This document shows positions 12,201 to 56,020 of a stretch of 64,000 nucleotides of DNA, piece after piece. Every line of letters begins with the position of its first letter. The stretch's first letter is position 1. The stretch is from Octopus vulgaris. Its lineage: Eukaryota. The stretch covers positions 89,280,001 to 89,344,000 of the forward strand of contig OX597821.1 in the NCBI GenBank assembly GCA_951406725.2, in the 5' to 3' direction. Under the pieces are notes generated by a model, which was given only the letters and a program-made list of their open reading frames with translations, searched no databases and was not told the DNA's origin. The position numbers were made by a program, and so were the translations under genes.

Positions 12201-12395
12201 GAAGGTATCCTTAACCTCTTGAAGTCATATGACAAGTATGTGTTAAACAGATACAATTTTGTAATAGGCATACAGACATACATATAATAGTAATAATAAT
12301 AATATAATGTACATATGTATGTGTGTATGTATATATGTGTGTTTGTGTGTGTATATATATATATATATATATGAGTGTGTGTATGAATATATGGA

Positions 12396-12650
12396 TACAG
12401 GACGTCACCAACTGTGCAAACTGCAGGAAATATGTAGATAAAACAAGTTAAATATGTAAAGAACGAGAGGAAAATATGGAAAACAGGACAAGTTAAAACA
12501 CAGAGAAACGACCCTTCATCAGTTGTCGGCTGTCTATCTACTCCTCATTTCGAGCATTCAACGACAATATGAGTCTTCAAAAACAGTTTCTCCCATAAAT
12601 TCTAAAATAAAATTTAGGATTTATGGAGGGTCAAAGTTGGAAACAAAAAC
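12396..12650 (-). mobile_element. Non-coding Penelope-like (pLTR-type) element carrying the permuted HHR
   Basis: On the plus strand it starts with TACAGGAC next to a TA/TG microsatellite, then an A-rich tract, the HHR motif and a hairpin at 12593-12626. Same layout as 55363-55700. The Penelope assignment is inferred. Confidence 0.5.
12511..12573 (-). ncRNA. Candidate non-circularly permuted (pseudoknotted) hammerhead ribozyme, copy 1
   Basis: Minus strand: CTCA-TA^TTGTCG-ttgaat-GCTC-GAAA-TGAG-15nt-CGACAA-CTGATGA-A-GGGT. Helix III CTCAT/ATGAG, helix I TTGTCG/CGACAA, helix II GCTC/GGGT. Core boxes intact; predicted cut after AUA (between 12568 and 12567). Confidence 0.72.
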
Positions 12651-12664
12651 AGGACAGTGGAGAG

Positions 12665-12950
12665 ACACACTCACCAGTAAAACTTCCACCCATTTCCCCC
12701 TTATTTTTCCAAAATTCCTACTGCGTCCTGCAACCCTTTCAATAGTTTGGAGAGTCAAAACTATTGAAAAGGTTACAAGACGGAACAAAGATTTTAGAAA
12801 AATAAAAAAGAAATAAACGGAAACTCCACCGGTGAGCATGTTAAACACAAGGCACCAAAAGAGAATGACTCTCCCTAGACACAACAGTATATGCTTCAAC
12901 AGACAAACTCACATAAAGAATTTTGCAAACCAAATCCAAAAACGAAATAT
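12665..12950. mobile_element. Repeat with an internal inverted repeat (arms about 85 bp, centre about 12752); homologous to 1639-1775
   Basis: CCTTTCAATAGTTT...AAACTATTGAAAAGG palindrome extending to CTCACCAGT/ACCGGTGAG; 12810-12950 matches the reverse complement of 1636-1775. Confidence 0.6.
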
Positions 12951-12951
12951 A

Positions 12952-13515
12952 TTGGGTTGTCCAGAAAAGTTTGTGCCAATTTTTAAAGGAAAGAAAAAGG
13001 TCAATAAATACTTGCCATTACATTTTTAATCAACCAAATATGAACCATTTTGTTGCACAATGCGTCTCCATCTTTCCTTTAACTTGAAAATACCCTCTTC
13101 CCAGAATTGAGGTGGTTTCATGGCAAACAATTCATCAAGGTATCTTTTTACGTCATCCAAATAATTGAAATTTTTTACCATTAAGACTATTCTGCAGAGA
13201 CCTGAATAAATAGAAATCCGAAGGAGCAATATCTGGTGAATATGGAGGGTGGGGTAACACATCCCAGCCAAGCTGCAGCAATTTTTGTCTGGTTCCCAAA
13301 GCATCAAGTGCCAAAAATGAACTTTCTTATCTTCCCTTTTAAAGGGTTACAGAATTAACACAGGTTATAGGAACATAAATCTTCTTCCACGGAAAGACAG
13401 CTTAAACTGTGCTCTAAATGGAGGTGTAGTCAAATCCTATTTTATGGACTCAGCCATGTTTTAAAATAAGTCGAAAGGTAAGCTAATATAAATCGGCACA
13501 AACTTTCCGGACAAC

Positions 13516-20780: not shown

Positions 20781-21589
20781 CACACACATTGCTTATATTA
20801 ATGTACTTGCATGGAAGAAGATGTATGTCTATTGGAATTTTTGCATCTATTTTTTGGTGCCTATGTGTGTATGTGTGTGTGTTTCTCTCTGTGTGTACAT
20901 GTGTGTGAGTATGTATGGAGAGACACATGTAGCGACAAAAGGCTGTTTTGCATCTATCTCTATATATATATATATATATACAGATATTTATACTTGCATA
21001 TTTGTATATTTATCTATGAGTGTATATCACTATATATATATGTACATATCTATAAATGTATTGAATAAAAGCACACAAATATGAATTGAGTGACACAAAC
21101 ACACATCCTATTTTCTCAATGTATATCTACATTGAACAAAGACAAAGGCACACACACACACACACATATCTATATAAAAGTGCTTCAAGGGTGTAATAAC
21201 ACAAATTTGATCTTCAACAATTATGTATTTATAAATCATAATGTAGTTTTTTTCTGTTAATACTCTTTGTGCTATAGTTTTTACTGCTCTTAATCTAATG
21301 GTACTCTCTCCATCTCACCCACTCTCTCTCTCTTTCTCTCTGTCAAATATATTCTCAGGTAATATATATTTATACTCACAAACACCCACAATAAAATTTG
21401 CGTGACAGAAACCAATTTGGATCCCTGTTATACACACACACACACACACACATACATACACCCTTACACTTTACCCTTTAATACATATGTACATAAACAT
21501 ACATACAAACTTATATGCATACGTACATACATATATTCATATATACATCGCAACTGCTTTCTTGTATATGAGCAAAGCAATTGCTAGAA

Positions 21590-46671: not shown

Positions 46672-48558
46672 ATATAAAGACTTTCACCGATAGGATGGGA
46701 AATGATGCTGCTTATTTCCAAGTCAACCTTTAATTAAAGACATTCGAACTATGACCATCCTGTGATTTGGAACTGTTTTTCACTTTGCTTGAGGTGGTTG
46801 GGTTTAATTCGAAGGTGTTTGGCTATATCTACCAGACGGAATGAGTAAAAACAGAGATGCCACCATTAACTGGAATGAGATATTTCCCGTTTTTGGATTG
46901 TTTAATCCCTGGTCAATTCTGATTCATTCATTTCTGACGAAAGCTGTTCCAGTTGTGAGTTTTAGGAAAACCGTGTATCTAGGATTGCATTATCTTATAC
47001 ATAATGCACAGTATGCTATCGTTGTTGTTGTTTTAATCCATGTTATACCTGAAGTAAAGAAACTTATATTGAAAGGTTTATTAACTAAGACCATTCCACT
47101 TTTATTCTCAGTTATAGTGTTGTGGATTTGGTTAGCTGGGAGCTGCATTATTTGGTCTGACAGCGTGCTGCTTCCAAATAAAACCAATCATGATATTAAG
47201 AATTTAGCAATATATCTATTTGCAGATAGATGTTACAGTAGTTACATAAGCTGTTATGTCGAATGATAGTAGTTAATGTGTGAGAATGTAAGCTTGGCAA
47301 GAGTTGAGAATGTATACTCGGTGAGAGATCTTTTAACAAGCGGTCGAGTTGACGTGGCTGCGGTTAACTAAAAAAAATTTCTGCAATTTTATATCCTGCA
47401 TATCTCAAATTATAACTATGATTTGGGGCAAAACCGAATGAAAATTTCCATTTGATTTCATCACAATACCAATACATGTAAATGATGACTGACGGAAATA
47501 TAGGCCAAGATCACCTGTACGTTGTGGCCTTCATCAGTTACTTCTCTGGCAACGATTCAAATGCAGTGTACTGTTACAGTGTACCCTGCGCATATACAGT
47601 GCACGATATCCAATAATTCCTCAAATAATAAAATGTCAGGATTTAATTTCTAGCAAATTCGTCTCATTTCTAGCAGATGTAATAACCATGTAGCAATCTT
47701 TTATTTTTAGATATTGTTGCTATTTGAGTCCTGGTCAGCTCTGATCTAGCAGGCATGAGACCAAAAATATTCCAACTGTGACCATCTAGGTTTGTTTACT
47801 TATTTTGTATAAAAGAACATCTTGATCGATGAGTTCTTCAATTTTTATGACATTAGTGCATGATTTGTGGAAATTTGACAACTGTTTCTGGCAGTGATGG
47901 AAATGAATCTAAAGAAATAGAAGTTCGCTATTGACCAAGTTCCTGAGGATGAGAAGGTGGAATAAAATATCATAAGTCAGCCAACACTGCGCATTGAGGA
48001 ACACCATCCTCCTACGTACACCAGCTACTATTACCATAATTGGTTTCTATCCGCGTAAGCAACCGCACAGTGGTTTTCTGGCTGTCTCATTTCAAAAGAT
48101 ATTGACAAGAAGGGGGAAGAGAAGGAGAGGAAGGAGGAGCAGGAGGCTTAATCCCAATTCAACCCTGATCCTGTAGACATACGATCAAAGTCAGTCCAGA
48201 AAACTTGGCTCAATTTTGTCCTGCGTACTGAGGCTTTAGGACCAAATTGTGAAATACGCCATGTTCTAAGACGGTAGTGAGTCTGAAAAATCAACCTGTT
48301 ATATCTTGCAAGTTAAGTAGCCTTGCAGAGGCATAGTCATTGTCTCGTGTAGGGATGATGTAATAAAGGAAGGCGCTAGAATGTGTTTTGGTCATAAGCT
48401 GTCAGACATTATGACAATGCACAATATATCAGTGTAGACATCTAAAAAGCCAATACTTGCTCTGATTCCTTTTGATGTGTTCTGGCTAAAATGGAACTCT
48501 TTTTGTTCTGATCAGGTCGGTGTCGAAGTCAAGTATCAGACCACCTGTCAACCTGATT

Positions 48559-53640: not shown

Positions 53641-54203
53641 AGGCGGCGAGCTGGCAGAAACGTTAGCACACCGGGCGCAATGCTTAGCGGTATTTCGTCT
53701 GCCGCTACGTTCTGAGTTCACATTCCGCCGAGGTCGACTTTGCCTTTCATCCTTTCGGGGTCGATTAAATAACTACCAGTTACGCACTGCGGTCGATGTA
53801 ATCGACCTAATCCGTTTGTCTGACCTTGTTTGTCCCCTCTGTGTGTAGCCCTTGTAGGCTGTAAAGAAATGGGTATTTCGTCTGCTGCTACGTTCTAAGT
53901 TCAAATTCCGCCGAGGTCGACTTTGCCTTTCATCCTTTCAGGGTCGATTAAATAAGTACCAGTTGCGCACTGGGTCGATGTAATCGACTTAATCCGTTTG
54001 TCTGTCCTTGTTTGTCCCCTCTGTGTGTAGCCCCTTGTTTGCTGTAAAGAAATAGGTATTTCGTCTGCCGCTACACTCTGAGTTCAAATCCGCCAAAGTT
54101 GACTTTGCCTGCCATCCTTCCGGGGTTGTTAAATTAAGTACCATTTGCGTGCTGGAGTCGAACTAATCGACTGGGCTTTGCCCCAAAAATTTCGGGCCTT
54201 GTG
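53641..54203 (+). mobile_element. SINE family B tandem trimer (one head plus 183-bp units)
   Basis: GGTATTTCGTCTG recurs at 53689, 53872 and 54055; the last unit carries the alternative tail. Confidence 0.9.
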
Positions 54204-55236: not shown

Positions 55237-55273
<37 letters not shown>

Positions 55274-55362
55274 ATAAATAAAATATATGCATGTATACAT
55301 ACATATATGTACATACTTACATCTACATGTATATATACATGCATATATATATATATATATGA

Positions 55363-55700
55363 GTACAGGACACCACAAATAAACGTAGAACACAACGAGA
55401 GACGAAAACATAAAATCAAACAAGGAAACGGACTTTTTTTAAACAAAGAAAAAACAGAGTACAGGACAAACAATACAAGGAAAATTCCCCTTCATCAGCT
55501 GCCCCTGGTTCGACTCAAAGTGTGTTTCGAAGGTAAGGACAGAACACGGCCGAAGTAGTCCTTCCTGCAAAAGGAATTCTTTTGCAGAGGGGTAAAACAA
55601 GTGACAAAAAAAGGACGTAAAAGCAATACAAATGAAGAAAAACAGTACAAATAAAGAAACAGGACAGGGAACAGACAATAAGGGCTTATATGACCGAACG
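55363..55700 (-). mobile_element. Non-coding Penelope-like (pLTR-type) element carrying the permuted HHR
   Basis: On the plus strand: (TA)n then GAGTACAGGAC, an A-rich tract, the HHR motif and hairpin CTGCAAAAG/CTTTTGCAG at 55565-55587. Far boundary uncertain, possibly about 55950. Confidence 0.5.
55487..55547 (-). ncRNA. Candidate non-circularly permuted hammerhead ribozyme, copy 2
   Basis: Minus strand: GTG-TT^CTGTCCTT-ac-CTTC-GAAA-CAC-15nt-AGGGGCAG-CTGATGA-A-GGGG. Helix III GTGT/ACAC, 8-bp helix I (two G-U pairs), helix II CTTC/GGGG. Spacing matches copy 1 while the stem sequences differ; predicted cut after GUU (between 55543 and 55542). Confidence 0.72.
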
Positions 55701-55984
55701 CACGCGTTATTTCTCTTCTCCAAGTTTTTATTTGAATACTCATGACGCGCACTTTTTGACCTTTCCTCCCTGCCTATCTGTCTTCCTCTCCACTTATCTC
55801 TCTCCTTCTTATTTTTCACCCTTTCTGGTTTCTTTCCCCTCTCTCTCCTCCTCCTCCTCCTGACCAGAGGGCTGCTAAAACTTTCTTTCAGCTTCGTCCA
55901 TCAACAAGTATAGATCGACTTCTGTCCTTCGTAAGCCGATTTTTCACATGCGTTCTAACTAATTTTTCCACTGTCCAGGCAAAA

Positions 55985-56020
<36 letters not shown>

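Follow-up and report, generated by a model that had tools for sequence, protein, structure and literature searches.

The first report of non-circular permutations in a natural RNA dates from 2023 (PMC10085705), and one of them, the hammerhead permutation with the block order S-G-C (cut site, then GAAA, then CUGAnGA), was validated in vitro (Eckert et al. 2023, PMC10085705). In the available sections of that report none of the RNAs comes from the genome of a known organism, with the exception of one weak GCS candidate. Among retroelements of the PLE group, Naiads are described as having no canonical hammerheads, as preferring (TA)n and as carrying "half cores" in eight families, and the cephalopod Naiads are described as having been inactivated long ago (Craig et al. 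2021, PMC8557442); a PLE, according to the same source, is recognized by copies in partial tandem, by inverted 5′ pieces and by a tail that is not always present. A 2026 preprint on retrozymes (bioRxiv 10.64898/2026.07.22.740005) names type I hammerheads only in its available text, and the terms searched there returned no sampled mollusc. Our own literature search, outside which lay most subscription papers and the repeat databases, found no report of SGC hammerheads in octopus, PLEs or Naiads. What is new here is an SGC hammerhead in an animal genome, situated on a hammerhead-bearing non-autonomous PLE; the two families concerned, A and B, may already have been catalogued as repeats.

The window, that is, the whole stretch of 64,000 nucleotides of Octopus vulgaris DNA that was analysed (contig OX597821.1, positions 89,280,001 to 89,344,000), contains one copy of each family. 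The family A copy lies on the minus strand at 12300..12669; it is 5′-truncated at 12669, and its 3′ limit falls in TA-rich sequence and can be placed only approximately. Read on the minus strand, a conserved hairpin upstream of the ribozyme (12593..12626, with 13 of 14 pairs formed) is followed by block S (12562..12573), made up of a stem III strand (12573-12569), an AUA triplet and a stem I strand (12567-12562), in which the cut is predicted between 12568 and 12567. Then come block G (12544..12555), with a stem II strand, GAAA (12551-12548) and a stem III strand; block C (12511..12528), with a stem I strand, CUGAUGA (12522-12516), an extra A and a stem II strand; and the motif GTCCTGTA (12396..12403), which is internal and has element-specific TA-rich sequence next to it. 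The family B copy consists of a pseudo-LTR with a TA-rich internal 3′ segment (55270..55687, minus strand) and of segment X (55687..55986, plus strand), inverted in place here, which holds the tail with its splice-donor-like motif and pyrimidine tracts; together they make up one full unit of ~720 nt. Its hairpin (55565..55587, minus strand, 9 pairs) is without 10 nt of the apex that most B copies carry. The remaining features, all on the minus strand, are block S (55535..55547), with a GUU triplet and the predicted cut between 55543 and 55542; block G (55522..55532), with GAAA at 55528-55525; block C (55487..55506), with CUGAUGA at 55498-55492, the extra A and a stem II strand; and GTCCTGTA (55364..55371), again internal, with ~90 nt of element sequence beyond it. 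The first-pass annotation of this DNA had recognized the shared order at both loci (hairpin, hammerhead core, U-rich tract, GTCCTGTA and TA-rich sequence) with coordinates that hold, and its predicted cut was the one predicted here. It had, however, called the hairpins unrelated and the primary sequence not conserved; in fact A and B align at 67% over 171 nt (E 1.8e-7), the hairpins have a common start and apex, and the two are homologous, diverged subfamilies. The A copy adjoins a palindromic repeat (window 12670-12950; also found in loci L036 and L357), and this repeat adjoins the end of a mariner-like element (window 12951-13400; such an end was also found in L044). Elsewhere, window 53689-54172 holds ~2.6 tandem copies of a multicopy 183-bp repeat, which we take to resemble an octopus SINE, and window matches at 20952 and 61123 proved to be microsatellite only.

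A search of the 2.8-Gb genome (227 contigs) gave 3868 first-look candidates for A and 3769 for B (the 40 scored for each were 87-90% identical in A and 87-94% in B), so that the check for multiple copies proposed in the first-pass annotation came out positive; exact matches to short 3′ motifs numbered 1225 for B and 206 for A, against 0 for the controls. Copy similarity in the BLAST-selected sets had a median of 94% for B, reaching 100% over the core, and of 90% for A; both core strands were retained in 15/30 A copies only. The hairpin, whose loss from the copies would have counted against the annotation, was retained: with 30 copies per family, and with rows lacking a locatable core excluded, it was more stable than shuffles (z<-2) in 23/28 A and 22/27 B copies, and the U tract was so in 0. 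Relatives of the element ran past the limits given by that annotation on both sides. GTCCTGTA had been taken for an end fused to microsatellite, which is not so for B, since 65-67 of the 72 copies run past it and show three more element-specific marks after GTCCTG; the TA-rich stretch adjoining GTCCTGTA is part of the element. For A the idea holds in part, as most copies do fade into (TA)n ~10-15 nt past the motif; 6/47, however, reach a tail common with B. Similarly, the suggested cleavage product of 170-180 nt agrees with the distances from cut to GTCCTGTA, 172 and 179 nt, but the B template must reach at least ~260 nt past the cut.

The B tail was reached in 22/72 copies and stops just past the splice-donor-like motif, which is kept in the tails of A, B, D and F and is a candidate donor for a spliceosomal intron following the pseudo-LTR. 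As judged by eye, the 3′ junctions of B copies lie mostly in (TA)n, and the 5′ flanks of B are microsatellite-like in 30/69, a raw fraction taken without a genome-wide baseline; the (TA)n preference proposed earlier for both elements is supported. The tail runs into the pyrimidine-rich segment that precedes the hairpin in other copies; the element is thus a unit of ~670-765 nt, and partial tandems with units of 670-765 nt occur (given here as examples, not as counts). An inverted partner lies within 1 kb upstream of 14/72 B and 9/47 A copies. An optional 3′ tail with preferred end points and variable 5′ truncation are both present, as in PLEs. The longest B frame had no Pfam match, and RT fragments never matched inside the units. 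We concluded from these results that A and B units are non-autonomous, ORF-less and Penelope-like in arrangement, and the earlier proposal is upheld that the loci belong to a retroelement family of many copies, with a permuted hammerhead and a functional RNA module that is conserved. Inversion junctions often fall inside the ribozyme (L116, L122, L174 and L224); that of L116 lies at stem I, where both strands supply microhomology.

Both window copies have the S-G-C order with a NUH triplet. A descriptor admitting all six block orders, run on 60 loci and the window, gave 46 S-G-C matches, 26 GCS matches (almost only in B, and weak) and one GSC match. In the genome, the core pattern GAAA...CUGAnGA in the SGC order had 10,733 matches compared to 58 in the control. 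The 90 loci that we fetched represent 93 of 100 listed core-pattern places, and flanks were not a selection criterion. At least 8 of 10 stem I and stem III positions were paired with their own strands in 43 of the 56 copies that keep upstream sequence; when strands were swapped between different subfamilies, pairing at that level was found in only 10 of 1972 combinations. In a 24-row alignment 87.2% of the cells pair, compared to 73.1% in shuffles (0/500 as good) and 38-54% in slid controls, with double-sided changes at 6/6 stem I pairs and 4/5 stem III pairs. The 24 rows were hand-picked, and three Naiad-type rows misaligned in block S were retained; as related rows inflate such covariation counts, the swap test weighs more. 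These results demonstrated that stems I and III covary across subfamilies. In addition, A15.1-U16.1 is A-U in 47/48 rows, the CUGAnGA and GAAA core is present, the cleavage triplets are GUC, GUA, GUU, AUA and AUC, and the spacing from cut to GAAA is tight (13-16 nt). One might still ask whether this is chance pairing in a repeat family, with no ribozyme at all, as no Rfam hammerhead model matched at either locus at E values up to 10. Covariance models, however, cannot represent the pseudoknotted SGC order, the swap and slide controls fail to pair, and the ends of copies cluster at the predicted bond (see below); chance is in our estimate very improbable. In a whole-window Rfam scan, the 150 of 257 matches listed were all hits of microsatellite sequence to miRNA models.

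Support for stem II was weaker than that for stems I and III. One of its four pairs changes on both sides and two of the four are forced by the search pattern; it requires one extra base after CUGAnGA (after A9), and a local hairpin 3′ of CUGAnGA competes with it. Its first two pairs are also present in most BLAST-selected A and B copies, and the same two are possible in an independent Naiad consensus, where the register past them is ambiguous. Between the free sides of stems I and II, pairing into a joining helix was weak and subfamily-dependent (by eye, not counted). Taken as a model, the end repeat is predicted to fold as a double pseudoknot that likely cuts the element transcript. The circular orders of the classic types I, II and III (CGS, GSC or SCG) were not found within one unit. 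The type II (GSC) reading was rejected, as none of 30 copies had an S block between G and C with 8 or more of 10 positions paired; for an S block 3′ of C there was one such copy in 30. The GCS reading in B was also rejected, since almost all of its 26 matches have a 3-pair stem III and it is absent from intact copies of other families. At window 47505-47540 (minus strand) CUGAUGA-A is followed by a 4-pair stem, without GAAA; this may be a classic hammerhead that has decayed, or chance.

Covariation at these base pairs would also be expected if the ribozyme acted only between two tandem units: one unit's S and C would pair with the G of the following unit, or its G with the S and C there. This would give a classic circular order with a ~700-nt loop and leave the SGC arrangement of a single unit never folded. 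Partial tandems do exist, and PLE hammerheads have been reported as active in dimers with low activity as monomers (PMC4209133, in the part available). Nevertheless, the tight spacings resemble the short stem I-II linker of the validated SGC ribozymes as described in PMC10085705, stem III has its full 5 pairs and is not a palindromic stub, and the CSG forms of Naiads, described below, retain a short S-to-G link as read by eye from their published consensus sequences. Action across units only is therefore quite unlikely, and we prefer an SGC fold within one unit.

For the analysis of 5′ ends, copies were picked by a 3′ motif alone and aligned to natural long copies, giving 72 B copies from 70 loci and, for A, 47/50 aligned. 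The B copies that reach the cut region end at 0..+19 in 25/54 cases, against a background of 30/615 window-trials (4.9%; p 7e-19). For A, 6/31 end at 0..+19 against a background of 25/442 (p 0.007); some of the U-tract ends of A mark only where the alignment stopped, which inflates this background. In the core-selected sample (91/93, two non-members or outliers being excluded) there were 25 ends at 0..+13, one of which was a poor alignment, compared to 15 in the 83 nt upstream. A genome-wide pattern that requires (TA)n no more than 24 nt upstream of the B cut yielded, by eye, 33 distinct loci among 100 of 101 rows; the exact cut was the commonest (TA)n junction (9/33 loci, p 4e-6), and the other 24 were spread upstream over 24 nt, so that an edge is marked, though not an absolute one. 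The pile-up of 5′ ends just past the predicted cut suggests that the ribozyme cleaves in vivo, and from the position of these ends we infer that roughly half of the B templates started where the ribozyme had cut, a few bases being lost at the join.

Alternatively, the fold could be real and the cluster could arise from a transcription start or an RT stall, the ribozyme being a weak or vestigial passenger. The triplets include GUU and AUA, which are slower hammerhead cleavage triplets. The ends are spread over 0..+29 rather than falling on one base, upstream ends also occur, and the integrity of the C core was no different in cut and uncut B copies (25/30 versus 23/28), a result that also led us to reject the idea that uncut copies come from ribozyme-dead sources. 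A Penelope transcription start in the pLTR is described in PMC8557442. A stall, however, would be expected at the first helix, block C, where 3 B ends fall (+33..+55), or at the hairpin upstream of the cut, where there are none (-25..-2), and the commonest junction is the scissile bond itself, without TA microhomology in B. We regard a start or stall as an unlikely source of the cluster and retain cleavage by the ribozyme as the preferred reading.

The 3′ ends of 27 of the 54 Naiad consensus sequences in the supplement of PMC8557442 were read by eye, with the records named by file order. Two octopus records (Naiad_Ovul and the preceding one) end in a complete SGC hammerhead, which is preceded by a hairpin with motifs like those of family A. 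Seven Naiads, from nematodes or a spider (Parc, 1-3_Nbra, Hcon, Hpol and Smim), have a complete CSG form, a circular permutant of SGC that keeps the same short S-to-G link. In the Amil, 3_Chem, 2_Movir and Bfor Naiads the order is S-G-C with the stem II strand detached from CUGAnGA, a topology that would not be covered by the six block orders of Eckert 2023 as given in its available sections; the stem II 5′ strand of these four lies upstream of S, and extra helices are present. There was no readable hammerhead in 14/27 ends, including the flagged half-cores Esco and 3_Dst. The ends of the records before Sglo, Tgra, Pmar, Mcor and 2_Chem (four bivalve Naiads and one hydrozoan Naiad) have a different conserved GC-rich motif and no hammerhead core; this motif is a candidate second ribozyme or structured RNA. 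In the octopus genome, the Naiad SGC motif had 300 exact matches compared to 0 in the control, and it was found downstream of Naiad-type RT frames in 6/30 loci (RVT_1 E 2e-4, below the curated cut-off). On these sequence matches, SGC is likely to be the ribozyme thought to be missing from Naiads. An SGC motif near a Naiad RT in L343 was rejected as the Naiad's own, as it really belongs to the ORF-less family F inserted there. Family F (L363-L382) is a sibling family with 916 first-look candidates, the same tail and the S-G-C order, in which, as read by eye, an inserted hairpin separates CUGAnGA from the stem II strand.

A and B do not carry the Naiad ORF (N-terminal GIY-YIG, C-terminal RT) and were classed as likely Naiad passengers, not as Naiads. 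Among the fetched loci, an RT ORF joined to a pseudo-LTR of A or B was never found, and BLAST of A and B against the Naiad 3′ end showed short collinear motifs but nothing significant (best E 0.16-0.2). This lack of similarity would suit a different mobilizer for the same ribozyme and mechanism, a PLE with a C-terminal endonuclease (Neptune or Poseidon type), as would the finding that RT-GIY-YIG fragments of such PLEs adjoin A/B-type copies in several loci. These neighbours, however, meet A and B via (TA)n tracts and have 3′ regions of their own unrelated to A and B, and the SGC order and the hairpin motifs are common to A, B and the Naiad. We consider a mobilizer of the Neptune or Poseidon type possible but doubtful, and lean, if only somewhat, towards a Naiad as the probable partner. 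In L358 (3260-3750) a B-type 3′ piece, cut off ~30 nt past its cut, stands head-to-head with a truncated Naiad ORF via a few TA; this possible co-mobilization is only suggestive, and a similar join with a Neptune-type element was seen in L217. PLEs with a C-terminal GIY-YIG in L145, L242, L261 and L303 end with a conserved GAAACCGGT-like motif, which is possibly half of a long-loop type I hammerhead.

We propose, with good though not full confidence, that both loci are copies of a ~700-nt ORF-less PLE-like superfamily whose S-G-C ribozyme cuts the transcript and which is served in trans by a PLE enzyme. Transcription through a tandem or from a neighbour would give an RNA predicted to self-cleave; a PLE RT-endonuclease acting in trans, most likely that of a Naiad, would nick (TA)n; and reverse transcription would prime internally in the AT-rich 3′ segment or the tail, internal initiation matching tail ends having been described for an anole PLE in vitro (PMC11167929). 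Copying would then halt at the ribozyme-made 5′ end, as in about half of the B copies that reach the cut, and read-through on uncut RNA would generate longer, partial-tandem or inverted copies. The first-pass annotation had named a permuted hammerhead correctly; it had missed the non-circular SGC type, the ORF-less PLE units and the link to Naiads.

These observations place the SGC topology in an animal genome, with more than 10,000 matches and natural covariation over many subfamilies, and tie a rare RNA topology to a measurable effect on insertions. They would correct the statement that Naiads lack hammerheads, and the 5′-end cluster, as a putative genomic footprint of cleavage, bears on the role of PLE hammerheads, which has been described as unclear. 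More broadly, we think it rather probable that non-circular hammerheads are the standard ribozyme of much of the Naiad clade, cleaving in vivo and setting the 5′ ends of thousands of insertions. The forms would then be SGC in octopus, CSG in nematodes and a spider, and the form with a detached stem II in cnidarian and ctenophore Naiads and in family F; if this is true, animal genomes hold these "rare" topologies in abundance, and their role in PLE transposition is a visible one.

Compared to known systems, the canonical type I hammerheads of PLEs (Cervera and de la Pena 2014, PMC4209133) are described as having a circular order and a stub helix III and as needing dimers; A and B, in contrast, have a full 5-pair stem III and a non-circular order. 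The non-LTR retrozymes, as presented in the available text of bioRxiv 10.64898/2026.07.22.740005, resemble A and B: they are ORF-less, carry a hammerhead, measure a few hundred bases per unit and derive from the pseudo-LTRs of PLEs. They form, however, tandem arrays in which every unit has a type I hammerhead, an arrangement that was not found in A or B, whose hammerhead is SGC and whose copies are mostly dispersed truncated monomers. We also noted, by eye, a family in 11 loci (L061, L065, L067, L072-L074, L076, L084, L087, L089 and L090) in which a tRNA-like SINE head is followed by (AAT)n and then by a classic type I hammerhead; this hammerhead has the same extra A after CUGAUGA as A and B. 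Naiads, as described in PMC8557442, share with A and B the (TA)n preference, partial-tandem and inverted copies and a tail, and the octopus Naiad 3′ end in the supplement to that paper shares the SGC order, the spacing and similar hairpin motifs; A and B differ in encoding no protein and in showing no significant BLAST similarity to that end. The type-SGC ribozymes (HRIMA-1 and variants, as described in PMC10085705) are like A and B in the order S-G-C, the core, the short stem I-II link and the covarying stems. The octopus copies have one extra nucleotide after CUGAnGA and an indistinct interaction helix, and, whereas those ribozymes were reported from environmental sequence, here there are more than 10,000 genomic matches within a retroelement.
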